A DNA stretch of 25,176 nucleotides from Acidobacteriota bacterium (GTDB lineage: Bacteria > Acidobacteriota > Blastocatellia > Pyrinomonadales > Pyrinomonadaceae), in contig JANOXW010000255.1 of NCBI GenBank assembly GCA_031418635.1, positions 1-25,176 of the forward strand, read 5' to 3'. The notes under the pieces are model-generated. The model searched no databases. It saw only the letters and a list, made by a program, of their open reading frames with translations, and had not been told where the DNA came from. The translations under genes were made by a program, and so were the position numbers. This document shows, one piece after another, positions 1,250 to 25,176 of the stretch (its first letter is position 1; the number at the start of each line of letters is the position of its first letter).

Positions 1250-1273
1250 TAAAGAGTATCTCCTTTTTGTTTT

Positions 1274-1339
1274 TTAACCGTGAAATATACGAAAAATCAA
1301 ATAGATTTTTTTCTCGCTTTTCGCGTATTTCGCGGTTGA
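1274..1339. repeat. REP-like imperfect hairpin between xylH and xylF
   Basis: Left arm TTAACCGTGAAATATACGAAAA (1274-1295) pairs with right arm TTTTCGCGTATTTCGCGGTTGA (1318-1339); the mismatches are transitions. Confidence 0.75.
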
Positions 1340-1354
1340 ATATCTTCTCTGAAT

Positions 1355-2503: not shown

Positions 2504-2507
2504 CTTT

Positions 2508-2894: not shown

Positions 2895-3124
2895 TATTGA
2901 ACGTGCAAAGGATAAACTTTTTCAGCTTTTAGAGTTGCGCCTGCATATTGCAAGCAAGCCACAATATCTTCGTGCGTAATGCCCGGATAATTGCGGAAAA
3001 TTTCCGCTTCAGTCCATTCGTTTGCTAATAATTCAATAATAAACTCAACCGCCAATCTCGTATTTTTTATCACCGGCTTGCCTGTCAAAACAGTCGGGTC
3101 AACCGTAATTCTTTCTTGCCACAT
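2894..3124 (-). CDS. DUF433-family antitoxin (VapB45-like)
   Basis: 76 aa; RITVDPTVLTGKPVIKNTRLAVEFIIELLA...YPGITHEDIVACLQYA is the DUF433 signature; RBS GGAGG; coupled to the PIN gene. Confidence 0.92.
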   Translation of the reverse strand: MWQERITVDPTVLTGKPVIKNTRLAVEFIIELLANEWTEAEIFRNYPGITHEDIVACLQYAGATLKAEKVYPLHVQ

Positions 3125-3137
3125 CTTGCCTCCAAGT

Positions 3138-3387
3138 TTATTTGTCGTTATTTTTCCGAATTTTTATCGCTTCAATATCAAGCGGTTTCGATTCGCCGTT
3201 TTGCGATTGTTCAAAACCTCGCAAAATGTGTGCTCGAAGTTTTTTAATACGCATTTTCTTTAATACTTCTTGTTCTTTCAAAAGCCGCAAACCATCTCGC
3301 ACGACTTCGCTTGCTGAAAAATACATTCTACTGGCAACCAATTCGCCGACAAAATTTTCAAGTTCTTTATGTTAATGAAACATTCAT
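3138..3387 (-). pseudogene. parD: ParD-family ribbon-helix-helix antitoxin with a +1 frameshift and probably a truncated C-terminus
   Basis: ATG 3387 gives MNVSLT then TAA. Removing one base near 3369 restores KELENFVGELVASRMYFSASEVVRDGLRLLKEQE..., the ParD pattern MNVSLTxELExFV...YxSASEVVRxGLRLL. No parE follows. Confidence 0.85.
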
Positions 3388-3443
3388 AAAATTTACTTCT
3401 GTATTGAAGAAAATTTTACCATTGAATAACACTTATTGCTATC

Positions 3444-3515
3444 AAAAGTGAAAAAGTGGAAATGTGCAAATGTAAAAAAGCCGGTAGCGAAAAGCAACAA
3501 AACTTTTTCACTTTT
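3444..3515. repeat. Octamer-built inverted repeat just downstream of xylG
   Basis: Perfect 14-bp arms AAAAGTGAAAAAGT (3444-3457) and ACTTTTTCACTTTT (3502-3515). The left side continues as degenerate 8-mers (AAAGTGAA AAAGTGGA AATGTGCA AATGTAAA). Confidence 0.7.
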
Positions 3516-3527
3516 ACCCTTTTTCAG

Positions 3528-5051: not shown

Positions 5052-5111
5052 AATTATTTTTAGAAAAATATATTTGTTTGGTTTTACCAATAATCCCAAA
5101 CTTTTACAAAT

Positions 5112-6470: not shown

Positions 6471-6474
6471 AAAC

Positions 6475-8688
6475 TTATTTTCCGGTTATAGTAAAATCGC
6501 CTTCCAATCCGTCAAGTGAATTGTCTCCGACATAAACTTTAAAATCTCCCGGTTCGACGACAAATTTCATCTGCGCGTTGTAAAAGCCGAGATGTTCGGG
6601 CTTGAGCGTAAAAGTAACGGTTTTCTTTTCGCCTGATTTCAACGTAATTCTTTGAAAACCTTTTAATTCACGAACCACCGGCGAAATACTCGCCACCATA
6701 TCGCGGATGTAAAGTTGAACGACTTCATCGCCCGTTTTTTTGCCCGTATTTTCTACGTCAACTATAACATTTAACGAACCGTCAGGGCGAATTTGCTTCG
6801 CGCTCAAACGCAAATTTTGCATACGAAACTTTGTATAACTCAAGCCGTAACCAAACGGATAAAGCGGCGTGTTCGGAATATCAAGATATTTTGAAGTGTA
6901 TTTGTTTTCGGCTTCAAACGGTCTGCCCGTGTTTCTGTGATTGTAAAAAATCGGAATTTGTCCGACGCTACGGGGAAATGTAACAGGCAATTTTCCGCCC
7001 GGATTTGCGTCGCCGAAAAGCGTATCGGCAATCGCGTTGCCGCCTTCTGTTCCCGCAAACCACGTTTCCAAAATCGCGGGCGACATTTCCGCCAACCAAT
7101 TTATCGTCAAAGGTCTGCCGTTCATCAGAACAACCGCGTAAGGCTTGCCGATGGAGTGAATCGCTTTGACCAAATCGAGTTGCTTGCCGGGCAAATCGAG
7201 CGAACTGCGCGACGACGCTTCGCCACTCATTCCCGCGTCTTCGCCAACTACCAAAATCGTAAAATCAGAATCTGTTGCGGCATTTACCGCGTCTTGAAAA
7301 TCGTCGAAATTTTCGCAAGCTATTTCGCAACCTTTCGCATAATTGATTTTTGCATTGTTTCCGAGTTTGTTTTTGATGCCTTGCAAAACCGTAACGGCAT
7401 CTTCGTCGCGCCCGTCGCCTGCCCACGAACCGTTCATAATTCGCTGATTATCGGCAAGCGCACCGATAACCGCGACGGATTTGATGTTTTTGGAAATTGG
7501 CAGAGTTTCGTTGTCATTTTTCAACAAAACAAATGATTTATTAGCAATCTCACGGGCGGTTCTTCGATTTTCAGCAGTTAATAAAGTTTTGCCTTCTAAA
7601 CTTTCATCGGTAAAAGGTTTGTCAAAAAGTCCGAGTCGAAATTTAATCCGTAAAATTCGGCGCACGGCTTCATCAATCGTCGGCATCGAAAGTCGTTTGT
7701 CTTTAACGAGTTCTGCGCCTGTTCGATTGTAAAAACGGCTGACCATTTCCATATCAACACCCGCGTTGAGCGCGAGTTGCGCCGCGTCCGCTTCGTCTTT
7801 TGCATAGCCGTGTTTCAACAGTTCCATTACGGCGGTATAATCGCTGACAACAAAACCATCAAATTTCCACTGACCACGCAAAACGTCCGTCAAAGTCCAA
7901 CGATTTCCCGAAGTCGGAACGCCGTTGAGATCATTAAACGCGCTCATAAATGTTCCAACACCCGCATCTTTGGCGGCTTTGAACGGCGGAAAATAAATAT
8001 TATACAAAGTGTTTTCGGAAATATCAGTCGTGTTGTAATCGCGCCCGCCAAAAGCCGCGCCGTAGCCAACCCAATGTTTGGCACAAGCGACAACTCGATC
8101 ATTCGCGCTGTAATCTTTTCCCTGAAAACCAAGCACACGCGCTCGCGCAAACTCCGCGCCCAGAAATGTATCTTCGCCCGCGCCTTCGACAATTCTTCCC
8201 CAACGCGGATCGCGGGCAATATCAACCATCGGCGCAAACGTCCACGCCACGCCAGCCGCACGAGATTCTTTTGCCGCGATATACGCCGAAAGTTCAGCAA
8301 GTTTTATATCAAAAGTCGCCGCCTCGCCAAGCGGCACGGGAAAAATCGTGCGATAGCCGTGAATCACGTCAAACGCGAAAAGATGTGGAATCTTTAAACG
8401 CGATTTCATCGCCTCCCGCTGTAATTCATTGACTTTTGCTGCGCCACGCACATTTAAAGTCGAACCGAGCAAGCCGTTTTTGACAAGTTCGAAATGTTCG
8501 GGACGAGAGTTTCCGTTCGCCTCGCCGTCCAAAATTTGAAGTTGTCCGAGTTTTTCCGCCAAAGTCATTTTGGCAATCAAGGCATTGACTTTTCTTTCGA
8601 TGTCCGCCTGTTTTGTTTGTGCGGAAATTGAAAAAGCAAAAAGAATGAGTAGCAAAAAGATGATAAATCTCGTTTTATTTAATCGCAT
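6475..8688 (-). CDS. bglX: Periplasmic GH3 beta-glucosidase, BglX-like
   Basis: Likely start ATG 8688 (MRLNKTRF..., signal peptide); DVIHG, RDPRWGRIVEGAGED, ACAKHW, nucleophile motif VVSDY, GEASSRSSLDLPG, YPFGYGLSY, C-terminal Fn3-like domain. Confidence 0.95.
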   Translation of the reverse strand: MRLNKTRFIIFLLLILFAFSISAQTKQADIERKVNALIAKMTLAEKLGQLQILDGEANGNSRPEHFELVKNGLLGSTLNVRGAAKVNELQREAMKSRLKIPHLFAFDVIHGYRTIFPVPLGEAATFDIKLAELSAYIAAKESRAAGVAWTFAPMVDIARDPRWGRIVEGAGEDTFLGAEFARARVLGFQGKDYSANDRVVACAKHWVGYGAAFGGRDYNTTDISENTLYNIYFPPFKAAKDAGVGTFMSAFNDLNGVPTSGNRWTLTDVLRGQWKFDGFVVSDYTAVMELLKHGYAKDEADAAQLALNAGVDMEMVSRFYNRTGAELVKDKRLSMPTIDEAVRRILRIKFRLGLFDKPFTDESLEGKTLLTAENRRTAREIANKSFVLLKNDNETLPISKNIKSVAVIGALADNQRIMNGSWAGDGRDEDAVTVLQGIKNKLGNNAKINYAKGCEIACENFDDFQDAVNAATDSDFTILVVGEDAGMSGEASSRSSLDLPGKQLDLVKAIHSIGKPYAVVLMNGRPLTINWLAEMSPAILETWFAGTEGGNAIADTLFGDANPGGKLPVTFPRSVGQIPIFYNHRNTGRPFEAENKYTSKYLDIPNTPLYPFGYGLSYTKFRMQNLRLSAKQIRPDGSLNVIVDVENTGKKTGDEVVQLYIRDMVASISPVVRELKGFQRITLKSGEKKTVTFTLKPEHLGFYNAQMKFVVEPGDFKVYVGDNSLDGLEGDFTITGK

Positions 8689-8723
8689 ATTTGTTCCCTT
8701 TGGCTTTGAAACTTGTTTAGATA

Positions 8724-8741
8724 TACTAAAACCATTGTGCT
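8724..8741. promoter_or_regulatory. Possible weak LacI operator upstream of bglX
   Basis: TACTAAAACCATTGTGCT matches the reverse complement of operator 2 (TACTAAAACGATTTAGTG) at 13 of 18 positions but lacks the central CG. Confidence 0.3.
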
Positions 8742-8852
8742 GATAGTAGATTGACAATTTAAAATCATATTTAAACCGCAGATGAAAATAGATAAACATA
8801 TGATAAGAAAAGGCGCCAATACAAAAACGACTTTGCGTAAGATAAATTATTA

Positions 8853-10199
8853 ATGAAAAATCAAATTATCGCTCAAATCGAATCTTTCAAGTTTCTCAGC
8901 TATTATCTGTGTCTATGTCTTTTGGGCTTTTCGACAGTTTCAGCGCAATCTAATCAAACAGTTATCAAACTTTTGCAAGAATCTGCCGCGTTGATTCAAG
9001 CGGGAAATTTTAGCGAAGCCGAACCACTTTTGCGTCATGCTGTTTCGATTGCGCCGACAAATTCCGACGCGCATAATCTTCTCGGTATCGTGTTTGACCA
9101 ACAAGGCAAAATCGTCGAAGCCGAAAAATCTTACCGCATCGCGCTGAAATTAAATCCGAAAGCCGTTTCACCGCTTGCCAACTTGGGCGTTTTGCTTGCC
9201 CGCACGAAAAAATATGAACAAGCCGCGCAAATTTTTGAAAATATCTTAAAAGTTGTGCCAAATCATCCGCAAGCCACTATCAATCTCGGACTGCTTTACA
9301 CTTCGTTGAGCAAATACGAAAAAGCCGTCAAACTTCTCCAAATTGCTGACCAAATTCAGCCTGATTCTTTTGACATTATTTTCAATCTCGCGCTGTCGCT
9401 TTATCATTTGCAACGCTTTGACAGAGCAAATGCGGTTTTCACGGAAGCCGCTAAACTTTCGCCAAATGCGCCCGAACCGTTTTATTATCTCGGCTTAATC
9501 GCTTTTGAACACAAACAAGATGAAACAGCGGCGGATTTTTTTGATAAAGCCGTCAACTTGCGCCCAACTTACGCCGAAGCCAATTTTATGCTTGGCGAGA
9601 TTTTGCGAAAAAACAATCGGCTCGACATTGCCAAAGATTTTTACGAAAAAGCATTGGCGCAAAATCCTTCGCAAGCCGTCAATTATATTCGTCTCGGCGG
9701 CGTTTATTTGGTCTTAAACGATTTTGCCAAAGCATTGGACGTTTTCACCAAAGCAGCAAAACTTTTTCCGAACATCCCTGAAATTTATTACTTTCTAAGC
9801 ATCACGGCTCGCGCTCAAGGAAATTACGATTTAGCTCTCGCGTCGCTTAGAAAATCCCTTGCGCTGAAACCCGAAAACGCGGATGCGTTAGCACTTTTAG
9901 GCGCAATTTTAGCTGATAAAAATGAACTCGTCGAAGCTGAAAAACTTCTTCGTCAAGCGATAAATCTCGACAAAAATCATTTCAATTCGCATCACGATTT
10001 GGGTAAGTTATTGGTCAGAAATCGTCGTTACGAAGAAGCCTTGCCGATTTTGCAACGCGCTTCGTCGCTCAAACCCGAAAATCCTGATGTGCATTATCAA
10101 CTTTTCCTGACTCTTTCACGGCTTAAACGCCAAATCGAAGCTGACCAAGAGTTGGCTATTTATAAAAAATTAAGCGATGTGAACAAAAATCCAAAGTAA
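8853..10199 (+). CDS. Secreted all-TPR protein (about a dozen repeats)
   Basis: 448 aa; signal peptide ending VSAQ; repeated 34-aa units such as AHNLLGIVFDQQG..EAEKSYRIALKLNP; no other domain visible. Confidence 0.9.
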   Translation: MKNQIIAQIESFKFLSYYLCLCLLGFSTVSAQSNQTVIKLLQESAALIQAGNFSEAEPLLRHAVSIAPTNSDAHNLLGIVFDQQGKIVEAEKSYRIALKLNPKAVSPLANLGVLLARTKKYEQAAQIFENILKVVPNHPQATINLGLLYTSLSKYEKAVKLLQIADQIQPDSFDIIFNLALSLYHLQRFDRANAVFTEAAKLSPNAPEPFYYLGLIAFEHKQDETAADFFDKAVNLRPTYAEANFMLGEILRKNNRLDIAKDFYEKALAQNPSQAVNYIRLGGVYLVLNDFAKALDVFTKAAKLFPNIPEIYYFLSITARAQGNYDLALASLRKSLALKPENADALALLGAILADKNELVEAEKLLRQAINLDKNHFNSHHDLGKLLVRNRRYEEALPILQRASSLKPENPDVHYQLFLTLSRLKRQIEADQELAIYKKLSDVNKNPK

Positions 10200-10240
10200 T
10201 AAAGACGCGGAAAACCAATTTATTTTCCGCGTCTTTATTA
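10197..10240. terminator. Bidirectional terminator hairpin between the convergent TPR and TBDR genes
   Basis: Perfect 18-bp stem TAATAAAGACGCGGAAAA / TTTTCCGCGTCTTTATTA with an 8-nt loop. Confidence 0.8.
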
Positions 10241-10245
10241 CCGTT

Positions 10246-13200
10246 TTAGAAACTAAATCTCGCTTGTAATTCAATAACTCGACCAGCGAGTCCGGTAGTC
10301 GCTCTGCCGAATCTCGGATTCGGATTATCGTCGTTATTGATTCTCGTGCTGTCGGAAGCAAAACCGAACGGAGCAAGATTAAGATTGTTAAAGGCATTGA
10401 AAAGATTAACCCGTAAATCTAAACCCGTGTTTTCACTTATACGCAGACCTTTCGGCAAATCAAACCGCTTGGAAATACTTATATCGGTTGAAAAGTATCG
10501 CGGACCGCGAAAACCGTTTCGTCCGATTCCAGGCGGATTAACCAGAAAAGATGTCTGACCCATCAAATTGCGGTTGAGAGTTGTCTGGAAAATCCGATTA
10601 CAGCCAACTCCCATAGCAGCTCTACAGTTAGCTCCCGCAATAAAACTTCCCGTAAAGTTGCCGTTACCGTTAAGAAATGTATCGTTGGAAGTATTATTTC
10701 CGGCTCCGCCGAAAAATCCAATCGGGCGGAAAGGTCCGAATTCAGCCCCGCTTGCCGAGCGAATTCCCTGATTGGCGACGACCGGTGTAAATGGAAAACC
10801 GGTATGCCAAGTTACGATTCCGTTGACTTGCCAACCGCCGAGAAAAGTTCCGACCAAATCATTACGATTGCGGAAAATCGGCAAATCCCACAAACCGAAA
10901 ACATTCAAATTATGTCTAACGTCAAAATCTGAAGGTCCGTATTCCGAATCATTATCAACCGGAAAAGTTTGGTTGGTTACAAAACCGGGACCAGAATTTG
11001 ATAAATTATCGAGACTTTTGGCAAAACGATAATTTGCCTGAAACTGAAAACCGTTGGCAAATCGTCGTTCAAGCGTTGCCAACAAAGCGTTGTATCTCGA
11101 AATGACATCAGGTGTCGGCAAAAATGCCTGAAAAATACGCGGATTTACATTGGCAAAGATAAAGTTTTGATTAACCAATCGAATCAGGTTTTGATTCGCA
11201 CTTCCTTGATAGCCGACTGTCGCCGTCAATTTGGCGGGCAATTGATATTGTCCTTCGAGCGAATAACGAAAACTTTGAGCATTCGGCTGGTTTTGCGGCG
11301 AACCGTAAATTTCTACCGAACTGTTGAACGGCAATCCGGTCATCGGGTTGATTCCGCCGCCCAAAAGCGGATTTCTCGGAAAACTATTGGGCGAATTACT
11401 GCTTCCCAACGCATATAAAATCTGTCCGTCAACAAAAGGCGAACCGAAACCGTCGCCACCGGCAGGTCCAGCCGTTCCGCAACAAATGCCGAAGCGCGAA
11501 AAGAACGGCGGATTAGCCAACGAATTGATAAAGACGACGCTCGGTATGCGGTTATAGCCGATGCCGAATCCGCCGCGAATAACGGCTTTATTTTTTAAGA
11601 AACCGGGACTGTAAGCAATGCCGATTTGCGGTCCGAAATTGTTTTTGTCCGATTGAAAGAATTGATCAACAAGTTCAACTCTCGAATCGGATAATCCGTT
11701 TGGTCCGAAAATAAGATTGGTTTGCTGATTTAATCCATCGCTAATCGGCGGAAAAAATTCATATCTCAAGCCTAAATTGACAGTCAGATTCGGTCTGACT
11801 TTCCAATCATCCTGCACAAAAAAAGCATAATCATTTGTTCTGTATCTACGCTCCGCACTCGCCGGTGTGCCGGTGTTCGGATCGGCGTTAATACCTTCAA
11901 AAATCGGCGTGTCGTTTGCCAAATTAAAGAATCCGGTAAAAGTAAAAATCGGACGCGCACCGCCGATCAGACTTCTTTCGTTAATATCAAACCGAAGTTG
12001 TGTGCCAAACTTAAGCGCGTGATTGCCTATCAGCCAGTTGAATGTGTCGCTGAAATCCACACTTTTTTCCGACAAAATGCCGGGCGTATTTTCATTTTGC
12101 GGTGCGCCGAATCTGATGCGGTCAAACGGAAGTTGCTCGATTTCAATGCGCGGAATACCGAAGTTTGAACCCGGATTCGAGGCAACCTCGTCATACGAAA
12201 AACCACTGTAATTGACACGCGCCTGATTAAATTTAGTAGCTGAAATGGTGCGGTTATAAATTGCCGCGACCGAAAAACTCAGCCGATCCGAGATAATGTC
12301 GCCAATCGGACGACTGCGCCCGGCAATATCCGAACCGTTGGCTAAAGTTGGTGTAAAAAAGGTTGAAACGGCAATGCTGTCTTTTGCGGTTGCGTTGTAA
12401 TCAACCCGTGTAAAATATTGGTTTCCGGCAAAAGTATTCGGAACATTTAAGCGGACAAATTGAACGTCGGGAATACCATCAAAACCGCCGCCGATATTAG
12501 CTCTGCCAACTCCGTCGCCGAATGGCAAATAAACATTTCGTGTGCCGGTAATCGAACCAATATCTAGTCCGCCACTGACTGCCTGACATCTTTGCGGTCC
12601 ATAACCAGCCGCCGCGCAAGTGGTCGGAAGCACGGACAAAATACGCGGTGCGATGCCCGGTGCGCCGAAAACTCGTGCCGTTACACCATTCGGGCGCAGA
12701 GCGCGAACTGCGTCGCGGAATTGCGATGTTTCGACAAAAGCATCGGATGTTGTATTCGTGTTATTACGCAAGCCCTCATACGCAAAAAAGAAAAACAATT
12801 TATCTTTGCCGCTGGTTGCAAACGGACCGCCTTCACCAAAGTTCAAAAACGGCAAAGGTCCGCCGAAACTGCCGCCGAATTGCTTGAGCCGTTGGGTAAC
12901 TCGTGCCGGTGCATTGGGAAATTTATTAAAGGAATTTAATCCGGGATCATTATATTTAAAAAAACCGCTTCCGTGATAATCGTTTGTTCCGTTTTGGCTG
13001 ACGACTTTGACAACTGCGCCGGAATTTCGCCCATCTTCCGCCGAATAAGTGGATGACGAAATGTTGACTTCCTTGACGGCTTCTTGGCTTGGCGTGATAA
13101 TCGCGCCGCCGCCATTGGTTTGGCTGTTGACGCTTACACCGTCTATCTGAAAGTTGTTTGCTTCGACTCGTTGACCGTTTGCCGTAATCGGAACTTGGTT

Positions 13201-13794
13201 TTCAGTTTGGAAAATCGAACTGTTGGAACCGCCCGGACCGGGCGAATTCGGAAAACCGCTCGAACCTCCGTTGCCGCCGCGTGCGCCGTCGCCAAAAATT
13301 CCCGGCGTTAAGCGTGCTAACTCGTAAGGATCGCGCCCAACCTGCGGCAGACGCAAAATTTCCTTAGTCGAGAGAGTGTTGTCAATGTTCGCGTCTTCAG
13401 TTTTGAGCGTTTCTGCTTCACTCGTTACCGTCACGATTTCGCTGATTCCGCCGGTTTCGAGCGCAATATTTAAACCTTGCAAGCCGTCTGCCCCGACCTC
13501 TACTTTTTCAACCACGTATTGTTTGAAATTTGTTTGCGTAACGACAAGTTTGTAGTTTCCCGGAGCAAGTCCGTTAAAACGATAAAATCCATCATTATTT
13601 GATACTGTGCTGACTTCTTTGTTGGTTTCGGTATTTGTCAAAACGACATTTGCGCCAACTACGGAAGATCCGCTTGAATCAGACACAGTTCCTTGTAATA
13701 CTGCCTTGAATTGCGCGTTGGCAATCAGCGCAAAACACAGAATTAAAACGCTACAACTTAAAAAGCGTTGTAAGCCGGAAAACTTTCGGTTCAT
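10246..13794 (-). CDS. TonB-dependent receptor, acidobacterial Oar-like type with an N-terminal carboxypeptidase-regulatory-like domain
   Basis: About 1180 aa; signal peptide; N-terminal LQGTVSDSSG...G.Y.L.V domain; plug motifs NNFQIDGVS, YSAEDGRNSG; barrel motifs YAFFVQDDWKVRPNLTVNLGLRYE and DKNNFGPQIGIAY; C-terminal F. RBS GGAGGTG favours ATG 13794. Confidence 0.93.
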   Translation of the reverse strand: MNRKFSGLQRFLSCSVLILCFALIANAQFKAVLQGTVSDSSGSSVVGANVVLTNTETNKEVSTVSNNDGFYRFNGLAPGNYKLVVTQTNFKQYVVEKVEVGADGLQGLNIALETGGISEIVTVTSEAETLKTEDANIDNTLSTKEILRLPQVGRDPYELARLTPGIFGDGARGGNGGSSGFPNSPGPGGSNSSIFQTENQVPITANGQRVEANNFQIDGVSVNSQTNGGGAIITPSQEAVKEVNISSSTYSAEDGRNSGAVVKVVSQNGTNDYHGSGFFKYNDPGLNSFNKFPNAPARVTQRLKQFGGSFGGPLPFLNFGEGGPFATSGKDKLFFFFAYEGLRNNTNTTSDAFVETSQFRDAVRALRPNGVTARVFGAPGIAPRILSVLPTTCAAAGYGPQRCQAVSGGLDIGSITGTRNVYLPFGDGVGRANIGGGFDGIPDVQFVRLNVPNTFAGNQYFTRVDYNATAKDSIAVSTFFTPTLANGSDIAGRSRPIGDIISDRLSFSVAAIYNRTISATKFNQARVNYSGFSYDEVASNPGSNFGIPRIEIEQLPFDRIRFGAPQNENTPGILSEKSVDFSDTFNWLIGNHALKFGTQLRFDINERSLIGGARPIFTFTGFFNLANDTPIFEGINADPNTGTPASAERRYRTNDYAFFVQDDWKVRPNLTVNLGLRYEFFPPISDGLNQQTNLIFGPNGLSDSRVELVDQFFQSDKNNFGPQIGIAYSPGFLKNKAVIRGGFGIGYNRIPSVVFINSLANPPFFSRFGICCGTAGPAGGDGFGSPFVDGQILYALGSSNSPNSFPRNPLLGGGINPMTGLPFNSSVEIYGSPQNQPNAQSFRYSLEGQYQLPAKLTATVGYQGSANQNLIRLVNQNFIFANVNPRIFQAFLPTPDVISRYNALLATLERRFANGFQFQANYRFAKSLDNLSNSGPGFVTNQTFPVDNDSEYGPSDFDVRHNLNVFGLWDLPIFRNRNDLVGTFLGGWQVNGIVTWHTGFPFTPVVANQGIRSASGAEFGPFRPIGFFGGAGNNTSNDTFLNGNGNFTGSFIAGANCRAAMGVGCNRIFQTTLNRNLMGQTSFLVNPPGIGRNGFRGPRYFSTDISISKRFDLPKGLRISENTGLDLRVNLFNAFNNLNLAPFGFASDSTRINNDDNPNPRFGRATTGLAGRVIELQARFSF

Positions 13795-13861
13795 AGAAAA
13801 CACCTCCAGAGCAATTTTTTTAAATATTTAGAATTATTTGAACAACTGTCGAAAAACGAAT

Positions 13862-13892
13862 TAGTAAATCGTTTCACTAAATCGTTTTAGTA
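13862..13892. promoter_or_regulatory. Two overlapping LacI-type operators
   Basis: Imperfect palindromes with central CG: TAGTAAATCGTTTCACTA (13862-13879) and CACTAAATCGTTTTAGTA (13875-13892); the core TAAATCGTTT repeats at 13-bp spacing; they lie between divergent lacI and TBDR genes. Confidence 0.7.
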
Positions 13893-13902
13893 ATGTTACA
13901 AA

Positions 13903-13930
13903 TTTATACTAAACATTAAGTTCCCGTCAA
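13903..13930 (-). promoter_or_regulatory. Putative sigma70 promoter for the TBDR
   Basis: Minus strand TTGACG (13925-13930), 16-nt spacer, TATAAA (13903-13908). The predicted start near 13896 lies just upstream of the operators. Confidence 0.55.
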
Positions 13931-13997
13931 CAACAAATCATAAAATGTTGGTTAATAATAAAATTTTCAGCCTATTCTTGTCTTAAAAGGTTTAGTT

Positions 13998-15089
13998 ATG
14001 CGACACTTACCACAACGTCGGGCGATAATGATGAAAAAAGACAAATCCAACGGGTTTTCAAAAGTTATGACCAAGCCAAAAGCGGTTAGCCTTAAAGAAC
14101 TTGCTGCGTCGCTCAAACTTTCGCCAACGACGGTTTCATTAGTTTTGAACGCTGCGCCGACGGCGAGTTCGATTCCGACCGGAACGCAAGATCGCATTTT
14201 TGAAGCAGCGCGAAATCTGAAATATCGCCCAAATCACATCGCCCGTTCATTACGCGCCCAACGCACACATACTATTGGCGTTTTGATTCCCGAAATGAGC
14301 GAAGGTTATTCGGCGACGGTTTTGAGTGGTGTCGAAGAAAAATTGTTGGAAGAAGGATATTTTTACTTCGTCGTCAGTCATTGGCATCGTGAAGCACTTA
14401 TCGAACATCATTCGCGTTTTTTTGTTGAAAGATGTGTCGAGGGAATTTTAGCGGTTGATACGCCGCAACATCATCAAACCTTTTTGCCGGTTGTTTCAAT
14501 TTCTGGACACGACGAAACCAAAGGTGTTACAAATATCGTCTTAAATCATGAACAAGCCGGACTTCTGGCGGTTGAACATCTGGTCAAACTCGGACATAAA
14601 AAAATCGCCGTCATCAAAGGACAATCATTTAGCTCTGATACAGAAGCGCGTTGGAACGCGATTCGGACAGCGGCGGCGCGATGTTCAATTCCGATAAAAG
14701 AAACTTTGGTTGCACAACTTGTCGGAACTAATCCGACACCCGAACCCGGATATGTTGCCGCCAAAGAATTATTAGCCGCTAAAGCTGAGTTTACGGCACT
14801 TCTTGCTTTTAATGACATTTCTGCTATCGGTGCAATTCGCGCTCTGAATGAATCTGGCAGACGAGTTCCCGAAGACGTTTCGGTCATCGGGTTTGACGAT
14901 ATTTACGCGGCGGAATTTCATAATCCGTCGCTTACGACCATTCGCCAACCGCTGAAAGAAATGGGTTGTTTGGGCGCGGAATATTTGTTGAAAAGAATCC
15001 GCGAAAATCAAAGCGACGATTTTCCCGCCGACGTAACCGTTGAGCCGGAATTAGTAATTCGTCAATCAACCGCCGCAGTCAAAAACTAA
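13998..15089 (+). CDS. LacI-family transcriptional regulator
   Basis: HTH VSLKELAASLKLSPTTVSLVLN; hinge YRPNHIARSL; sensor motifs FNDISAIGAIRAL and VPEDVSVIGFDD...PSLTTIRQP. The start could be a downstream ATG. Confidence 0.95.
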   Translation: MRHLPQRRAIMMKKDKSNGFSKVMTKPKAVSLKELAASLKLSPTTVSLVLNAAPTASSIPTGTQDRIFEAARNLKYRPNHIARSLRAQRTHTIGVLIPEMSEGYSATVLSGVEEKLLEEGYFYFVVSHWHREALIEHHSRFFVERCVEGILAVDTPQHHQTFLPVVSISGHDETKGVTNIVLNHEQAGLLAVEHLVKLGHKKIAVIKGQSFSSDTEARWNAIRTAAARCSIPIKETLVAQLVGTNPTPEPGYVAAKELLAAKAEFTALLAFNDISAIGAIRALNESGRRVPEDVSVIGFDDIYAAEFHNPSLTTIRQPLKEMGCLGAEYLLKRIRENQSDDFPADVTVEPELVIRQSTAAVKN

Positions 15090-18518: not shown

Positions 18519-21500
18519 CTATTTCGGTTCGCCTTGAAGCGTGAAAGTCGCCCAGAAATATGGATTTTGCCAGCGTTTGTCTTTGAGCAGAGAAATCTGT
18601 GCTTGTCGCAAAGCGGACGCGGGCGACAATTTTTTGCCGCCGAGCATTTCGCGGTAAAAATTCGCCATCAATTCGGCAGTTCCCTCGTCGTTCACGTCCC
18701 AAAGACTGACGACGACGCGCTTTGCGCCCGCATACATAAAGCCGCGTGTCATTCCGATTAAGCCTTCACCGCGAATTTCTTTGCCCAAACCCGTGCGGCA
18801 ACCACTTAGAACAACCATTTCCGCCGGCAGTTTCAGATTAAAAATATCGTTGACGCGCAGAAATCCATCTTGCTCTTTGCCGCTTTCGTCAATCGTCGAA
18901 AAAACGATGCCCGAAAGTTCGGGATTTTCGTTGTTGATAAAACCGTGCGTGGCAAAATGAATGTAACGATAATTTGCCAATTCGGGCGACATTGCTGAAC
19001 TTCGATTTGCCGCAAAATCTAACATTTTTTCTTTTTGATTTTCGGCAACCAACGCACTTATCGAATCGGCTTCGCGCCGCGTGAACGGCAATCGCAGCAA
19101 ATCCATATCGCCAACGTCAGAACTTCGCAGACGTTTTTTTGAAACAGCGACAAACTCCGTTGGCGGTTTATTTTGCTCCGCCATCAATTGAAATCTCTCG
19201 TCCGTTTTATCAAAAATCGGGTCAGCCAAAACCGCCAAAGTTTTCGCCGCAAGCGGTCTGCCGTTCATTTCACGCCGTAAAATCGCCAAAGCTGACGCAG
19301 AAGGTAAATTAACAATTTCGTGTTCTTCAATTAAAAATCGTTCTTCGACTTTGGACTTTGGACTTTGGACTTTGGACTTTGGAACAGTAAGCGAAGCGAA
19401 CGGAACATATTGCAACGCGCCGTCGGCGACGATTAGCAGACGTTTGCTTTCTAAAAACGGCGCAGCAGGCGCGAGGATTTGTTGGCTCAATTCCTTTGAA
19501 AATTTCTGCAAATCCGAATCGGTGATAAAGATTCGGTCGGCGCGTTCATTCGCGGTTTCAAATTCGATTTGCTTGTTTCGCGCTGTTAGAGATTCGTAAA
19601 ATTGCCGCGCCGTTTTTTCGATAATGGATTTCGCGGGCAGTTCGACGGTGCGAAAATTATCTTTTGAAACAATCCACAGATAGCTTTTTTCTTCGCCCAA
19701 AGCGTATTCGAGCAAAACGGAATCGGTATCTAAAAGTTCGCTTTGAATTTCTTTGAGAGTCAATGTTTTCGGTTGTTTAAGTGCTGCATAACGCGGATTT
19801 TGGCGACGAATTTGCGATTGTGTTTGTTCGTAATCGGTGCGGAGTTGGGCGATTTCGTTTTTTAGCTCGGCGATTTTCACCGCCTCCGATTTTCGACTTA
19901 AAGCCTTTGTCAAATTTTCAAATCTTGCCGTCAACGAGTTTCCGAGTTCTTTTTCCTTAGCCAAAAGACTTTCGTTCACGCCTTGCCGAATATCAATGTT
20001 TGATTCGGTTAAAAGATTCAAAAGACCGCGGGCGCGGGCGCGTTCATTTGCTTGAAGCGCAAGTTCGGCGAAGTTTTTGTTTGGTTCGAGTTTCTGACGT
20101 TGCATCAAAAGTTCGATATACGCGCTATAATAATTGTAAATCGTCGTCGAAAAAGAATCGCGTAAAGTGTTATTACTCATCTCGGCGCGAAAACCCTCAA
20201 TCAAGTTTAAGGCTTCTTCGATATGAGTTTGCGCTTCGTCCGTTTTTCCTAATCGGCTTTTGATCTTTGTTAGCAAATATAATGTTTTGGTAATGCGCGT
20301 CGGGTCTTCGATGGTGCGATATATGTCTAAAGATTTCTCCGCAAACTCCGTTGCTTCTGCCAATTTGCCGAGTTTTAAGTAAAATTCACCGAGAGTTTTC
20401 AAGAAAAACGCTTCGTTAGATTTATCGCTCTGTGTTTGTGCGATCTTCAAGGCTTCGTTTAGATATTCAAAGCCTTTGTCGGTGTTGCCGAGTTGAAAAT
20501 ATGAACGACCTAAGTTGCTGAAATAGCTTGGTTCAGGTTGTCTGCCAGACAAACTTTTATGCAAAGCAATCGCTTTTTCGTAATATTCGACGGCTTTTTG
20601 ATAATCCTTGTTTTCGTTGACGCAGTTTCCCATATAATTTAGCGTGATTGCCTGATTATATTTGTCATCGGTTTCTTCAAAGAGTTTGAGAGCCGCAACG
20701 TGATAGCTTTCGGCACGCGGCGCATCTTGCAAGCGGTAATAAATCGCGCCGATTCCATTGAGCGCAATGCCTTCGGTTTTTTTATTTTTCACTTCCTTTG
20801 AAAGTGCGAGCGATTCCGTCAAAATTTCGATTGCCTTTTGTCTTTCGCCGAGATACGCATAAACTCTGCCAAGACTATTTAATGCGTAGGATTGTTGTTT
20901 TTTATCGCCAATCGCCCGAAAAATTTCCAAAGAACGCTGATGAAATTCGATAGCTTTGCGTCGTTCGCCCAATCCTGTCAGTAAAATTCCGATGTTATCG
21001 AGAGCGACGGCTTCGGGTTTCTGTGCTTGTGCAAACTGAAATTTTTCGATTGCTTCCTGAAATTTTTTGATAGCGATTTGGATGTTTCCGAATGATGAAT
21101 CGGCTTTGATGAGTATTTCCATCTCGCTCATTATTCGTTTGCCGTCGGTGTAGCTGAATTCCTTTTCGGTTGCCGTGCGTAATTCGATAATGTTTAAGCG
21201 ATAATTTCCGTCGGTTTTATCAGCTGTGGTAACGCTTATTTGATAATCGCCCGCTTTTCTGACGGCGGCGTTGAGCGTTTCGGTTTCGTTCGTCGAACTG
21301 ACGGTTATTCCGTCCAACATAAACTTCCCGTCGGGTTCAAACATACTGACAGCGATAATGCCGTTGGTCGAAGTCGCGCTAATCTTTACAAATTGCCCAT
21401 TTTCGAGATGAATTTTGTAAAGATGTTTTTGCTTCGGCGAAACTTCGCGTGTTATCGCTTGTCCTTCTGACAGCGTTTTGACCTCTTCGGCAGTCTGACT

Positions 21501-21575
21501 TTGCGCGTTGGTCGGCAAAAACAGTAAAACTAAAATAAAATTGGCGGCAATTATTTCGATAAATCTATTTTTCAT
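18519..21575 (-). CDS. Secreted TPR-CHAT (caspase-like HetF/CHAT) protease with an N-terminal PPC-like beta-sandwich
   Basis: RBS AAGGAG spacing favours ATG 21575. Signal peptide (ILVLLFLPTNA-QSQ); PPC-like domain (KHLYKIHLENGQFV...); about 7 TPRs; CHAT motifs LLIVADGALQYVPFASL, IHFATHG (His codon 18945-18947), VVLSGCRTG (Cys codon 18798-18800), VVVSLWDVND, PYFWATF. Confidence 0.93.
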   Translation of the reverse strand: MKNRFIEIIAANFILVLLFLPTNAQSQTAEEVKTLSEGQAITREVSPKQKHLYKIHLENGQFVKISATSTNGIIAVSMFEPDGKFMLDGITVSSTNETETLNAAVRKAGDYQISVTTADKTDGNYRLNIIELRTATEKEFSYTDGKRIMSEMEILIKADSSFGNIQIAIKKFQEAIEKFQFAQAQKPEAVALDNIGILLTGLGERRKAIEFHQRSLEIFRAIGDKKQQSYALNSLGRVYAYLGERQKAIEILTESLALSKEVKNKKTEGIALNGIGAIYYRLQDAPRAESYHVAALKLFEETDDKYNQAITLNYMGNCVNENKDYQKAVEYYEKAIALHKSLSGRQPEPSYFSNLGRSYFQLGNTDKGFEYLNEALKIAQTQSDKSNEAFFLKTLGEFYLKLGKLAEATEFAEKSLDIYRTIEDPTRITKTLYLLTKIKSRLGKTDEAQTHIEEALNLIEGFRAEMSNNTLRDSFSTTIYNYYSAYIELLMQRQKLEPNKNFAELALQANERARARGLLNLLTESNIDIRQGVNESLLAKEKELGNSLTARFENLTKALSRKSEAVKIAELKNEIAQLRTDYEQTQSQIRRQNPRYAALKQPKTLTLKEIQSELLDTDSVLLEYALGEEKSYLWIVSKDNFRTVELPAKSIIEKTARQFYESLTARNKQIEFETANERADRIFITDSDLQKFSKELSQQILAPAAPFLESKRLLIVADGALQYVPFASLTVPKSKVQSPKSKVEERFLIEEHEIVNLPSASALAILRREMNGRPLAAKTLAVLADPIFDKTDERFQLMAEQNKPPTEFVAVSKKRLRSSDVGDMDLLRLPFTRREADSISALVAENQKEKMLDFAANRSSAMSPELANYRYIHFATHGFINNENPELSGIVFSTIDESGKEQDGFLRVNDIFNLKLPAEMVVLSGCRTGLGKEIRGEGLIGMTRGFMYAGAKRVVVSLWDVNDEGTAELMANFYREMLGGKKLSPASALRQAQISLLKDKRWQNPYFWATFTLQGEPK
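19347..19383. repeat. Perfect heptamer tandem repeat (GACTTTG)x5 inside the CHAT domain
   Basis: Five exact copies at 19347-19381 plus GA; translated as VPKSKVQSPKSKV between FASL and RFLIEEHEIV. Confidence 0.95.
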
Positions 21576-21766
21576 TTCCATCTCCTTCTCGCTTGTAAAA
21601 AAAATCGAATATTTAAGACAGAATCAATTTACCGAAAAGGCAGGTTGATAATCTTTAGAGAAATCTGAATGTTTTATGAATATTTTATGATGAAATTATT
21701 TGACGGTTGGGCATAATTTATCGCGTTTGCGGTGGTTTGTAAGTATTTATGCACACTATGCAGGCA

Positions 21767-21955
21767 AATTTTATCACTACAAAACTATTTCTTAGTGCTA
21801 CAAAGTCATTTCGTAGCGATACAAAACCATTTTGTAGTGGTATGAAATGACTTTGTAGTGCTATAAAATCATTTCGTAGTGGTATGAAATTATTTTGTAG
21901 TGCTACAAAACTATTTCGTAGTGGTATGAAACCATTTCGTAGTGATAGAAAATTA
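21767..21955. repeat. Tandem array of eight (plus one partial) 21-bp palindromic units
   Basis: Units start at 21788, 21809, 21830, 21851, 21872, 21893, 21914 and 21935; consensus TTTYGTAG-TG-STAYRAAA-NNA. The unit at 21893 (TTTTGTAG TG CTACAAAA) is a perfect 8-bp inverted repeat. Confidence 0.92.
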
Positions 21956-22079
21956 CTTTTTATCGCAAAAAAGGCGGTAAATTGACAGGAATCGGACAAA
22001 AAATAAACTGCATTAGCAAAAAATCTTTCAGATTCGGTTAAATTTATTGTTGCGCGATTGATTCATACACCAACTTCAA

Positions 22080-24236
22080 TTATTTTGTCTGCTTTGTTTT
22101 CGCTAAATCGTTGGCAATTCGCGCTGAAAGTTTGGAGATTGCGCCGACGTATTTCCAACCTGAAACACGCTTTCGAGTTGGATAAACGACGAAGCCTTGA
22201 GAATTTACAAGCCGCACAATCGCCGTCGTTGTTTCGTCTGTCGGATTGTTTGCGTCAGATTCGCGGCGCACAAAAATCATCAAACGCGCGTCAGCTTTTT
22301 CTTTCGGCACAATCGTAAAAGTTCCGTTTTTGAAAATCTCGGCAGAAATTTGTTCCTTAATTTGTCTGCTAAAACTTTCGTCGCCCGAAATATCGAGATA
22401 AATATGCTTGATTTCGCCCAAAGACTTTCCGCGTTTGATCGGACTGCGAACTTCTTTACGCTCATCAATATTATTGCCCTTTTCTCTAATCGGCAATCGC
22501 CAAACTTCCGTCGGGTTTGCATCGTTCGGTAAATTTTTCGGCTTGTTATTTTGCGCCTGTAACTCTTTTGGCGGAGTTTCAACCACGATTTCTTTTTTCG
22601 GCGCGACTCGCTTTTTATCTTCCGAGTTCGGCTTTTTGTCTTTTTTAATTACTGAATCGTTTTGTTCTTTAACCTTCGGCGGCGAAACGATTTTTTCGGA
22701 CGTTTCTTTGTCATCTTTGACAATTTCCTTTGATGGTTCGGGAATTTTGATGTCGTCCGTTTGCTTTTTCGGCGTTGGATTATCGTGAGCAACATCTTGT
22801 TTGTTCGCGCCAATCATTTGCCGATAAAACAGCCAACCGATTGACATTGCCAAAAGAATCAGTCCAAACGCCAACGCCGGTTTGAACGCCCAACTTAGAT
22901 TGTTGAACCAATTTGACAGCGAAAATCCGACGTTTTCGGAAGCCACAATCAAAGGTTTCGGCAATTCCGTTTCGGCATATTCGACACCGCAATTTATTCC
23001 GACGACTTCGCCGTATTCGTCCTTTGTCGGTTGCAAATTGAACGAAACTTTTTGTCCGCCTTCGAGCAAAACCGATTGGAGTTGATTGCCGTTTTCCAAG
23101 TCTTCAAAGCTCAAAAGATGCGTCGCTAAAATCACTTCGCCGTCTTTTTCAACTACGCGAACCTCGATTAATTCGGCTTCGTCGCCCAAATCGAAATTTA
23201 CTTGGTCGGTTTCTTCAAGATTGATTTTCGCTCTTTCGTTGCCGTCCACGACGACGCGCAAAAGGTTGGCGGACAGTGCGCGACGGCTTTCGGCTTGCGC
23301 CGCGAGAAGGTCTTTGATGGTTTGCAATTCGTCCGCTTCAAGATTCGGCGGATTGCGCCAATCGTCGTTGTTCTCGTTTGGTTGAATGTTTGAAAGCATA
23401 AATTTGGGAATCTCCATTTTTTCTTTGGGCGCAGGCAAATTCAAAGCGTCGGTCAAACGCGCAAAGCATTGCGGATGTAAAGCCGCGTGAATGCGGTTGA
23501 CCTCGATGCGATGTTCCGCGTCGGGATTTTGTTTGTCGAAATGAAACGGCGCGATGATGTCGTCAAACGGATTAAATTTGTCGGGAATCGCGCAAGAACT
23601 GTTCCAAGGCGTGAAAAATTGTAAGCAATCTTTCGCCGTTTCTGATAATTTTTCCGTGTCTGTTTGATGATTAAACCGTTCTTCGCCGCGATTGACTTTA
23701 ACGACTTCGAGAAGTTCGCCGAAACGCGCCTTTAATTCCTTCATCAAAACGCCTTTCCGCGAACGATAATAGTAATCGTCGTGAACTCGGTCAGCGTCTT
23801 GAACGACGATATTATAGATTTCCATCGCGTCATTCGTGCCGTAATTGTGCAAAATCCGCGAAATGCCAAGCGTTACATAAAACGAATTGCGCTTTAACGA
23901 AATACGAACTAAGTGTTTGATGAAATAGACGAGCAAGTTTCTTTCACTCGTCTTTTTCGTCGCTTCATTTTGTTTTTCAAAGTTCTCCGATTCGACAAAA
24001 ACGAGCCGTTGCAAAAGTTGTAAATCATTTAAAGAAACACGGCTGCGCGTCGCCCGCGAAGTTTCAGCGCGTCCGACGGGCGTGTAGTAATAGCGTTTGA
24101 ACTGCGCGTTGGAAGCGGTTTCGAGTTTGTTCATCGCAGACACAGCAATTTGCTTGGCGATGTCGCGCTTGCCATGTATAAAAAAAGCAAGCTGAAACGC
24201 CTTGTTAAGCCAATCGTCTATCTGATTTGTCTTCAT
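22080..24236 (-). CDS. Single-pass membrane protein; putative divergent ECF-sigma / zinc anti-sigma fusion with a periplasmic C-terminal domain
   Basis: 718 aa; no signal peptide. Residues 9-38 follow an ECF sigma2 pattern and residues 118-172 a sigma4 pattern. H250-x3-H254-x2-C257 plus C204/C215; one TM near residues 450-470; K/E/P-rich linker; alpha/beta C-terminal domain. The ORF is certain; the domain call is inference. Confidence 0.6.
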   Translation of the reverse strand: MKTNQIDDWLNKAFQLAFFIHGKRDIAKQIAVSAMNKLETASNAQFKRYYYTPVGRAETSRATRSRVSLNDLQLLQRLVFVESENFEKQNEATKKTSERNLLVYFIKHLVRISLKRNSFYVTLGISRILHNYGTNDAMEIYNIVVQDADRVHDDYYYRSRKGVLMKELKARFGELLEVVKVNRGEERFNHQTDTEKLSETAKDCLQFFTPWNSSCAIPDKFNPFDDIIAPFHFDKQNPDAEHRIEVNRIHAALHPQCFARLTDALNLPAPKEKMEIPKFMLSNIQPNENNDDWRNPPNLEADELQTIKDLLAAQAESRRALSANLLRVVVDGNERAKINLEETDQVNFDLGDEAELIEVRVVEKDGEVILATHLLSFEDLENGNQLQSVLLEGGQKVSFNLQPTKDEYGEVVGINCGVEYAETELPKPLIVASENVGFSLSNWFNNLSWAFKPALAFGLILLAMSIGWLFYRQMIGANKQDVAHDNPTPKKQTDDIKIPEPSKEIVKDDKETSEKIVSPPKVKEQNDSVIKKDKKPNSEDKKRVAPKKEIVVETPPKELQAQNNKPKNLPNDANPTEVWRLPIREKGNNIDERKEVRSPIKRGKSLGEIKHIYLDISGDESFSRQIKEQISAEIFKNGTFTIVPKEKADARLMIFVRRESDANNPTDETTTAIVRLVNSQGFVVYPTRKRVSGWKYVGAISKLSARIANDLAKTKQTK

Positions 24237-24247
24237 ATTACTGAATA

Positions 24248-24325
24248 GAATTAACAGGGATGAAGGAGATGAAGAGGATATAAAAAATCTTTTATCCCTT
24301 TCATCCTATTCATCCCTGTTAATTC
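24248..24325. repeat. Nonamer-built REP-like long hairpin immediately upstream of the 718-aa gene
   Basis: Perfect 17-bp outer arms GAATTAACAGGGATGAA / TTCATCCCTGTTAATTC, continuing imperfectly inward through GATGAA units. Confidence 0.88.
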
Positions 24326-24530
24326 TTCTTTAATTCATCGGTTAATTCTTCCTCGCTTAATCCACCAACATATTACTCCAACAAGCAAATTTCAGCGTGT
24401 AATTTTCGGAATTCACAAAATAACACGCAGTTAATTTTCAATGTGCGCGAAACTCATCGTGTTGATAACGAAAAATCAATCTGCTGAGAAGCGATTCTCA
24501 AGCAAAACTTTTTTGAAGGAACAAACATAA

Positions 24531-24926
24531 ATGAGAAGCACATTAAAAATTTTGAGTCTGATTATTTTGGTTTTGGCATTTGCCAGCCAAGCGAAAATCA
24601 ACGCCGCCGAAACCGCCGATTTTTCGGTTGAGGTTTTAGAGATAAAAGATTTGGGAATCTCGGCAAATGACGATTCCAAATCAATTGTCGAAGTGCGTTG
24701 GCGCGTCAATCCGACTCTCGTTGCCAATGTCGCTTCTTTCAATTTAGTTCTTTCCGTAACTTACGCCGACGGAACAACGACATATATCAAAAGACAAACC
24801 GATGGAAAATCGCTGTCAATGCGCGTCGAAGTTTCAAGCGTGAACATTTCAAAAGGTAAGTCCACAGCATTTATCAAAAAGCTGAACGCTACGGTAACTG
24901 CCGTGATTCCAGAAAAACAATTCTAA
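24531..24926 (+). CDS. Small secreted hypothetical protein, predicted beta-sandwich (Ig/Fn3-like)
   Basis: 131 aa; signal peptide ending ASQA; alternating beta-strand patterns (IVEVRWRV, FNLVLSVTY, MRVEV); GAAGGA RBS-like site upstream. Confidence 0.75.
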   Translation: MRSTLKILSLIILVLAFASQAKINAAETADFSVEVLEIKDLGISANDDSKSIVEVRWRVNPTLVANVASFNLVLSVTYADGTTTYIKRQTDGKSLSMRVEVSSVNISKGKSTAFIKKLNATVTAVIPEKQF

Positions 24927-24988: not shown

Positions 24989-25176
24989 ATGAAAAAATTA
25001 ACAGTAACAGCAATTTTCGGTTTGGCATTAGCCATCGCTTTAGGTTTCGGATTTATCCCGTCAATGGATCAATCAGCTGCTTGCGCCGATTGTAATAACG
25101 ACGACGCAACCGTCGCCAAGAAAATTTACGATAAGTTCACCGAGGAATGTGCCAAGTTGATTCCCGACCCGAAAGT
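24989..25176 (+). CDS. Secreted Cys-containing hypothetical protein, partial (runs off the window)
   Basis: Not in the ORF track. RBS AGAGGA; reads MKKLTVTAIFGLALAIALGFGFIPSMDQSAACADCNNDDATVAKKIYDKFTEECAKLIPDPK with no stop; hydrophobic N-terminus; C32, C35, C54. Confidence 0.8.
   Translation, partial: MKKLTVTAIFGLALAIALGFGFIPSMDQSAACADCNNDDATVAKKIYDKFTEECAKLIPDPK

Follow-up and report, generated by a model that had tools for sequence, protein, structure and literature searches.

A candidate protease-controlled, membrane-tethered transcription factor with a sigma-like head in Acidobacteriota

What is the function of a protein that carries a head resembling a sigma factor, a helical segment with conserved cysteines and histidines, a membrane anchor and a periplasmic domain on a single chain, and whose gene is accompanied by the gene of an exported protease? 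This question is raised by gene P0001 (22080..24236, minus strand) in a 25,176-nt stretch of DNA from an Acidobacteriota bacterium of the family Pyrinomonadaceae (assembly GCA_031418635.1, contig JANOXW010000255.1), which was analysed at its full length and is called the window below. The gene encodes a 718-aa protein that consists, in this order, of a sigma-like head, a Cys/His segment, a beta-sandwich, a transmembrane (TM) helix, a linker and a periplasmic domain. A first-pass annotation had proposed that it is a sigma factor of the extracytoplasmic function (ECF) type fused to its anti-sigma factor, tethered to the membrane and dependent on proteolysis. The best reading of the results presented here is that the protein is a protease-controlled, autoregulated, membrane-tethered transcription factor. 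The overall proposal is supported by adjacency to a CHAT protease gene in 86% of the loci, by gene fusion, by the parallel with the Myxococcus protein DdvA and by a promoter element, whereas the ECF and ZAS homologies that it assumed are not established.

The 718-aa open reading frame (ORF) is real, and the protein, judged by database searches, is far from an orphan and belongs to a large unnamed family. A word-indexed search yielded 966 full-length relatives, all of them unnamed or annotated as hypothetical. An exhaustive profile search yielded 958 representatives at the 50% identity level, including 514 with E < 1e-30 and 189 between 1e-10 and 1e-3; the members inspected were the best 150 of the 958. 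Named records come almost exclusively from metagenome-assembled genomes of Acidobacteriota (Blastocatellia/Pyrinomonadaceae), and 126 loci encoding a relative were found in a species-level genome collection. The family is spread patchily: in an even sampling across the phylum it is present in 7 of 401 genomes, and it was found in none of 27 other genomes from the source organism's own family. In the source genome the gene is single-copy. The DNA of the stretch occurs in freshwater-sediment metagenomes; a search for RNA runs containing it found none. Pfam and NCBIfam scans of the protein gave no match even at E ≤ 1. Searches of PDB sequences with phmmer and with a profile returned only a polyketide-synthase match, which we judged to be due to chance. 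PADLOC defence-system models matched neither the protein nor the products of neighbouring genes, except for a generic TPR model that matched the CHAT protein described below.

The domain order that had been proposed is confirmed by two AlphaFold2 models, and the residue strings quoted in support of it are all found at the numbers given for them (HAALHPQC being residues 250–257). The first model covers residues 1–300 and is based on 87 homologues (predicted local distance difference test, pLDDT, 86; predicted template modelling score, pTM, 0.86); the second covers residues 296–718 (pLDDT 78). The head, residues 1–176, is all-helical, with helices at 2–21, 24–48, 72–92, 98–114, 118–129, 134–145 and 154–175. 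It can be divided into a sigma2-like part of three helices (residues 1–96; 23949..24236, minus strand, as are all features of the gene given below) and a sigma4-like part of four helices (residues 98–176; 23709..23945). Loop 48–71 within the former is modelled as disordered though it is conserved, and in the latter an 8-residue loop, 146–153, replaces the short turn of the helix-turn-helix (HTH) motif. The head is followed by a short beta-hairpin and by helices 195–207, 240–253, 255–264 and 270–273, which form the helical Cys/His segment (residues 195–273; 23418..23654), a candidate built-in anti-sigma domain and metal site.

The second model begins with a long helix, 301–323, and an eight-strand beta-sandwich, 325–422 (together 22971..23336), for which only weak C2-like matches were found (Z about 5.5). 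The beta-rich domain expected ahead of the membrane is thus present, and it is followed by a single TM helix at residues 449–476 (22809..22892), in a protein that has no signal peptide. Residues 477–578 (22503..22808) are a disordered Lys/Pro/Glu-rich linker, highly variable in length and sequence among relatives, and could be the region of site-1 cleavage. The remainder (residues 579–718; 22083..22502) contains an invariant arginine, R597, followed by a compact alpha/beta domain at 611–717. The fold match to PelC, LptE, TolB-N, CsgG and LpoB spans the whole of this domain. Foldseek matched it to PelC with E 3.9e-6, and VIA Z scores for model residues 312–423 are 10.7 for the minor lipoprotein 5tse, 10.2 for PelC, 8.7 for CsgG and 8.2 for TolB-N, with LptE in the same range, so that the earlier guess of a CsgG/TolB-N-like domain was right at the level of the fold. 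The N-terminus is probably cytoplasmic and the C-terminus periplasmic, because the protein lacks a signal peptide and has a single TM helix, because its C-terminal fold occurs in known periplasmic proteins, and because in a fused subfamily (see below) a domain that is exported elsewhere takes the C-terminal position.

The gene is linked to a protease gene. Downstream of it in the window (18519..21581, minus strand) lies the gene of a 1020-aa exported protein that consists of a signal peptide, a PPC-like region, TPR repeats and a CHAT protease domain (E 4.7e-68) with the dyad His879/Cys928. Downstream sequence of 3.5 kb or more is available for 57 related loci, and in 49 of these (86%) a CHAT ORF of about 1000 aa is present within 2.5 kb downstream of the family gene. 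It is co-directional with the family gene in 13 loci, which belong to the closer relatives, and convergent in 36, hence the adjacency survives a change of orientation. A signal-peptide-like hydrophobic N-terminus is present in 42 of 46 full-length partners, and both residues of the dyad are conserved in all 51 aligned partners (100%). In two proteins of 1574 and 1602 aa (P0215 and L126:176-4981) the family head, the beta-sandwich and the TM helix are followed by TPR repeats and a CHAT domain. As these two are 40% identical end to end, over about 1600 aa, they represent a real subfamily. Several M50 (RseP-type) proteases, candidates for a second cleavage, are encoded in the source genome. The 498-bp gap between the two genes of the window contains about 8.4 copies of a 21-bp unit with higher-order periods of 42 and 63 (21777-21960); in the closest relative, L021, the gap between family gene and CHAT gene is just 117 bp.

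The gene is also linked to a promoter element. In a k-mer screen, GAATTCCGAAAATGCCACGCTG was found upstream of the family gene in about 50 of 78 loci, with less than one occurrence expected. The unit is a 17-bp half-site with the family consensus TTCCGAAAATGCCACGC. With up to three mismatches allowed, 143 instances are present in 76 of 81 sources (1.13 Mb), about six being expected (three were seen in 40 shuffled loci). A TATAAT-like hexamer lies 19–21 nt downstream of the half-site in about 100 of the 143 instances, and in 57 the distance is exactly 20 nt. The half-site itself spans roughly −49 to −33, with its centre near −41, and contains two conserved blocks that are separated by about one helical turn; no housekeeping −35 box is recognisable at these promoters. 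In the window the element TTCCGAAAATTACACGC (24395..24411, minus strand) is placed at the promoter of the family gene, at roughly −49 to −33, with the −10-like hexamer TAATAT (24370..24375, minus strand) 19 nt downstream. A degenerate second half-site with three mismatches (24412..24428, plus strand) abuts the first, points at a divergent ORF and forms with it a 34-bp imperfect palindrome.

Such pairs are common: 29 half-site pairs abut to form a 34-bp palindrome between divergent genes, and seven more have gaps of 5–17 bp. As 68 half-sites are unpaired and 50 of these have a correctly spaced −10 hexamer, the unit is one half-site tied to its own −10 rather than an obligate dimer operator. The palindrome was considered as such an operator and rejected, given the lone half-sites with their own spaced −10 and the range of pair gaps from 0 to 17 bp. 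An RNA hairpin is unlikely, given the position of the palindrome upstream of the −10 box, and the TGGCA within the element was rejected by eye as a sigma-54 −24 box, as no GC is found at the −12 distance.

The element and the gene occur together. Across the 401 genomes, exact copies of the element are found at six sites in three of the seven gene-bearing genomes and at none in the 394 gene-less ones, where matches with one mismatch occur at the rate of the control pattern. In all three genomes with exact copies one site lies just upstream of the family gene. A matrix scan of the source genome found the promoter of the family gene as the sole passing site, no wider regulon being found there, and gave no site in a shuffled genome. 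In the family loci the element precedes the family gene in 58 instances and other genes, mostly for signal-peptide proteins, in 63; among the latter are relatives of the divergent 131-aa ORF of the window. The recurring neighbours in these loci are the CHAT gene and several families of secreted proteins, and no other recurring regulator and no recurring sigma gene was found among them. Most simply, the 17-bp element would be recognised by the family protein, which would thereby control its own gene.

Two small signal-peptide ORFs are divergent from the gene in the window, at 24531-24926 and 24989-25174 (plus strand), with homologues in 20 and 18 of 80 related loci, respectively. The first encodes the 131-aa protein (24531..24926), whose homologues stand behind the same element in other loci and for which a Pfam scan found no family; the system may use both proteins as outputs or signals. 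A solitary, correctly spaced element in eight or more loci (L073, L080, L083, L084, L086, L089, L091 and L098) precedes the gene of a protein of about 325 aa that starts with '...RRRFLGLS..EASFAKRGF' and is encoded about 6-7 kb downstream of the family gene, past a convergent CHAT gene. One gene-bearing genome, G050, carries the element in four more places that are distant from the regulator gene, in exact or nearly exact form (C7:68868-68901, C13:169961, C23:41219), which suggests a larger regulon there. Between promoter and start codon of the window's gene, a hairpin of about 85 nt is predicted in the 5' leader (24242-24326, minus strand; −45.6 kcal/mol, z = −6.2, none of 200 shuffles as good). 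It ends a few bases before the start codon and could mask the ribosome-binding site. Rfam gave only sub-threshold matches to microRNA precursors in the intergenic regions, that is, to generic hairpins.

The nature of the head was addressed by comparison of structures and profiles. Each of the five structure searches returned ECF sigma factors, colinear with the head over residues 1–172 up to 1–195, with weak scores. A search of 48,161 PDB representatives that did not rely on Foldseek reached a best Z of 5.6, and some 20 of its 50 highest-ranking rows belong to the sigma-70 family. Model residues 1–96 were matched there by many ECF sigma2 domains with Z of 4–5.3; SigW from its complex with RsiW aligns to residues 1–194 (117 residues, Z 5.5), and CnrH from its complex with CnrY to residues 1–195. 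Foldseek searches of PDB, AFDB clusters and Swiss-Prot models returned SigW, SigH, SigL, SigV, SigX, EcfG, RpoE/NepR and PhyR at E 0.01–3. Colinear matches, including SigH, SigL, SigV and SigX, cover about residues 1–172, and the best sigma match has E 1.3e-2 and probability 0.99 over residues 13–274. For an independent ESM Atlas model of residues 1–190, all ten nearest fold sets are ECF sigma clusters (template modelling score 0.38–0.46, nine of them at 0.42–0.46), one being a sigma-zf-HC2 fusion; for the AlphaFold2 model of the head this is true of five of the ten nearest.

Profile comparison with hhalign against the 13 ECF sigma factors of the source genome placed residues 8–35 on region 2.1/2.2 in the register first proposed (P=0.015). 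When eight more divergent members were added, residues 5–68 aligned to ECF sigma2, likewise in that register, with a marginal P=0.003. In global mode the output was meaningless. The sigma2-like part is the most conserved part of the whole protein. In the sigma4-like part the putative recognition helix, 154–175, has invariant Y156, R158 and K161, with S159 and R160 conserved at 88–95%. The lengthened HTH turn noticed in the first-pass annotation corresponds to loop 146–153. Taken together, fold matches that are concordant but non-significant and one marginal profile match do not establish homology to ECF sigma factors; we nevertheless consider a sigma ancestry of the head likely.

The Cys/His segment had been described as a variant of the ZAS motif, HxxxHxxC. 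In 262 homologues H250 is conserved at 99%, C215 at 96%, C257 at 92%, H254 at 84% (otherwise N or D), H242 at 81% and C204 at 77%. The first and the last position of the proposed motif are well conserved, the middle one varies, and the alignment describes the motif more accurately as C215...H250-x3-[H/D/N]-x2-C257. In the most divergent members H250 and C257 are always kept, C215 is kept in all but one, which has His there, and position 254 is H, D or N. In one clade of 19 sequences H254 is replaced by N and C257 by T together, C215 is also lost in 8 of the 19, and H250 is kept. Because the putative ligands are lost jointly in this clade they could share one metal site, and conservation points to a probable site at C215, H250 and C257 plus H or D at 254. 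The segment resembles ZAS (zf-HC2) in position and logic. The string H250-A-A-L-H254-P-Q-C257 (23466..23489) spans a helix-break-helix junction, as does the H-x3-C-x2-C motif of ZAS, in place of which H250-x3-[H/N/D]-x2-C257 is found here. The best candidate for an upstream ligand, C215, lies 35 residues before H250, compared to about 25 in ZAS. Pfam zf-HC2 (PF13490) does not match the protein, and homology to ZAS is not demonstrated.

These observations can be assembled into a model, to which we give a probability of roughly 40%: the protein would be a self-inhibited, membrane-tethered, sigma-derived factor that is released with the help of the CHAT protease and acts as an alternative sigma factor at the element promoters. 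The head (1–176) would descend, with strong divergence, from the two-domain fold of ECF sigma factors. Segment 195–273, with its probable metal site, would pack on the head and keep it inactive like a built-in anti-sigma factor; the pTM of 0.86 for residues 1–300 argues for one compact unit of the two. The beta-sandwich and the TM helix would tether this unit to the membrane, with the linker and the PelC/LptE-like domain in the periplasm. There the neighbouring exported TPR-CHAT protein could sense a signal and cut the periplasmic part (site-1 cleavage), upon which an RseP-type intramembrane protease would free the head. The freed head could then serve as a sigma-type specificity factor at TTCCGAAAATGCCACGC promoters, 19–21 nt upstream of the TATAAT-like −10. 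Presumed targets are neighbouring genes that encode secreted proteins and the promoter of the family gene itself, so that the factor would autoregulate positively, with the protease gene probably included. A more far-reaching version, which we regard as somewhat doubtful, is that the family represents a strongly diverged and so far unrecognised branch of the sigma-70 superfamily that still binds core RNA polymerase, reads both the 17-bp element and the TATAAT-like −10, and is freed in trans by a caspase-like periplasmic site-1 protease, as a split DdvA.

A number of results weigh against the sigma-type model. No fold match of the head is individually significant: Z does not exceed 5.5, the template modelling score does not exceed 0.46 and Foldseek E is at least 0.01; sigma factors recur in every library, but weakly. 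For helical proteins a Z of 5.5 or less falls short of a meaningful score, and in the search of PDB representatives SigW does no better than a prenyltransferase and Cse1. Pfam sigma models gave no match to 87 family members at E ≤ 10, while the same models match 17 times elsewhere in the source genome, 16 of these above the family cut-off. The sigma4-like part has colinear fold matches and no signal in hhalign comparison with the ECF sigma profiles of the source genome (P=0.44). The acidic region-2.2 motif of sigma factors contacts the beta-prime subunit; the stretch aligned to region 2.1/2.2 reads D-R-E-x-A-K-x-I-A and does not keep the acidic and Gln positions of a DAEDLxQE-like motif, a degeneracy that had been pointed out before. 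Residues 195–273 aligned to the 11 zf-HC2 domains of the source genome in the expected register with P=0.62. At the promoters, the −10 hexamer is of the housekeeping TATAAT type and not of the ECF type, the length of the element, 17 bp, and its centre near −41 are those expected of a class II activator site, and only 1 of 142 elements stands directly before a CHAT gene. A predicted complex of residues 1–116 with the beta-prime clamp-helix region of the source genome (P0264:173-295) scored 0.00; both chains were poorly folded without alignments and no controls were run, so that this result counts neither way.

The features of the promoters lead to the main competing explanation, which we regard as somewhat less likely: the freed head would not be a sigma factor but a monomeric DNA-binding activator that sits near −41 and recruits the housekeeping holoenzyme, with the same logic of release. 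MarA/SoxS-type monomers act in this manner at class II promoters. The TATAAT consensus without a recognisable −35, the two blocks of the element one helical turn apart, the loss of the core-binding motif of region 2.2 and the absence of matches to sigma hidden Markov models speak for it. A plain activator would have no need of a sigma2-like part, yet this is the most conserved part of the protein, and both sigma domains are kept colinearly. The weak fold scores admit a more radical explanation, according to which the head resembles sigma and anti-sigma factors by coincidence; it would be an unrelated helical domain with no part in DNA binding, for instance a scaffold or, as with PhyR and its sigma-like domain, a decoy, and another factor would read the element. 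All fold scores are within the chance range of helical bundles, neither hidden Markov models nor profiles gave a significant match, and PhyR itself is among the weak Foldseek matches. However, independent models and libraries return sigma factors time and again, the element is found strictly together with the gene, in loci that contain no other conserved regulator, and the architecture parallels that of DdvA and of ECF52-type fusions, all of which makes a coincidence improbable.

The periplasmic half of the protein could be read differently as well. ToxR, CadC and VtrA have an N-terminal DNA-binding head, one TM helix, a small periplasmic alpha/beta sensor and a periplasmic partner protein, and a one-component regulator of this kind would bind its promoter while in the membrane, the periplasmic domain and the TPR-CHAT protein modulating its activity or turnover with no release of the head. 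The C-terminal domain does have VtrA (Z 6.5) and CadC (Z 6.4), in their periplasmic domains, among its matches, and the long helix with the beta-sandwich could serve as a spacer. But these regulators have a winged-helix head of the OmpR type and are active while tethered, whereas the head here is sigma-like and the partner is a protease. Tight linkage to and fusion with a protease whose dyad is completely conserved, a long disordered linker typical of site-1 substrates, and the RseP proteolysis of DdvA, the closest architectural precedent, all argue for release, and we find regulation without it quite improbable.

Two kinds of known systems are relevant to the sigma-type model. In Myxococcus DdvA a zinc-bound ZAS domain is connected through a TM helix and a flexible linker to TPR-CHAT in the periplasm; the CHAT domain is the proposed site-1 protease, and RseP has been shown to be the site-2 protease (PMC11506125). 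The two have in common a helical Cys/His segment in the cytoplasm as the actual or presumed inhibitor, a single TM helix, a periplasmic linker that is flexible, a periplasmic TPR-CHAT part and an available RseP-type protease. The likeness is closest in the fused subfamily, which has the same order on one chain plus the sigma-like head. It is architectural, since sequence comparison of the CHAT partner and the fused protein with the solved chains of DdvA found only TPR repeat matches. DdvA has a separate ECF sigma factor, whereas in the 718-aa family the sigma-like module is in cis; in the window and at most loci TPR-CHAT is exported as a protein of its own, and a PelC/LptE-like domain forms the end of the regulator instead. 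The phylum differs too, DdvA-like proteins having been reported only from Myxococcota and one Comamonas (PMC11506125), and the neighbouring genes here encode secreted proteins rather than a defence island.

Fusions of sigma and anti-sigma factors are known from IutY (ECF243) and from ECF48, ECF52 and ECF53, e.g. SCO4117; activation by proteolysis has been shown for IutY, with Prc and RseP, and proposed for ECF52 (PMC8999054, PMC5826349). These proteins likewise combine a sigma head, a zinc-finger or anti-sigma segment, TM helices and an extracytoplasmic part in one polypeptide. They are classified ECF sigma factors with a typical ZAS-type zinc finger, whereas the 718-aa family matches no Pfam sigma or zf-HC2 model. 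Relative to them it adds a cytoplasmic beta-sandwich, a different periplasmic domain, a CHAT partner and the C...H-x3-[H/D/N]-x2-C motif, and its promoter consists of a 17-bp upstream element and a TATAAT-like −10. The large ECF reclassification does not mention CHAT (PMC7826278). One-chain sigma/anti-sigma fusions and TPR-CHAT anti-sigma factors are thus known already; the 718-aa family joins both and is not detected by the sigma models of Pfam and NCBIfam. New are the variant of the metal motif, the beta-sandwich, the PelC-like periplasmic domain, the protease that is mostly a separate protein (in trans) and the family's own cis element.

As no Pfam region model matches the family, surveys of ECF sigma factors that start from such models would miss it. 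If the head is sigma-derived, a part of the sigma repertoire is hidden from surveys of this type, and if the model holds, envelope signalling linked to CHAT proteases extends from Myxococcota to Acidobacteria. The CHAT activity of DdvA has so far not been triggered experimentally; in the present arrangement the protease and its presumed substrate exist as two proteins, each of which can be purified and then combined with the other, and the proposed site-1 role of CHAT is thereby opened to a direct test. The 17-bp element offers a ready reporter and a route to the regulon, which apparently comprises mostly secreted, functionally uncharacterised proteins of bacteria from soil and sediment.

The other part of the window is occupied by a carbohydrate-utilisation cluster (167-15089), which is unrelated to the regulator. 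It encodes a sugar ABC importer, GH3 and glucoamylase-like glycosidases, an outer-membrane barrel of the TonB-dependent type, a LacI-family regulator and a BNR/sortilin-like protein.

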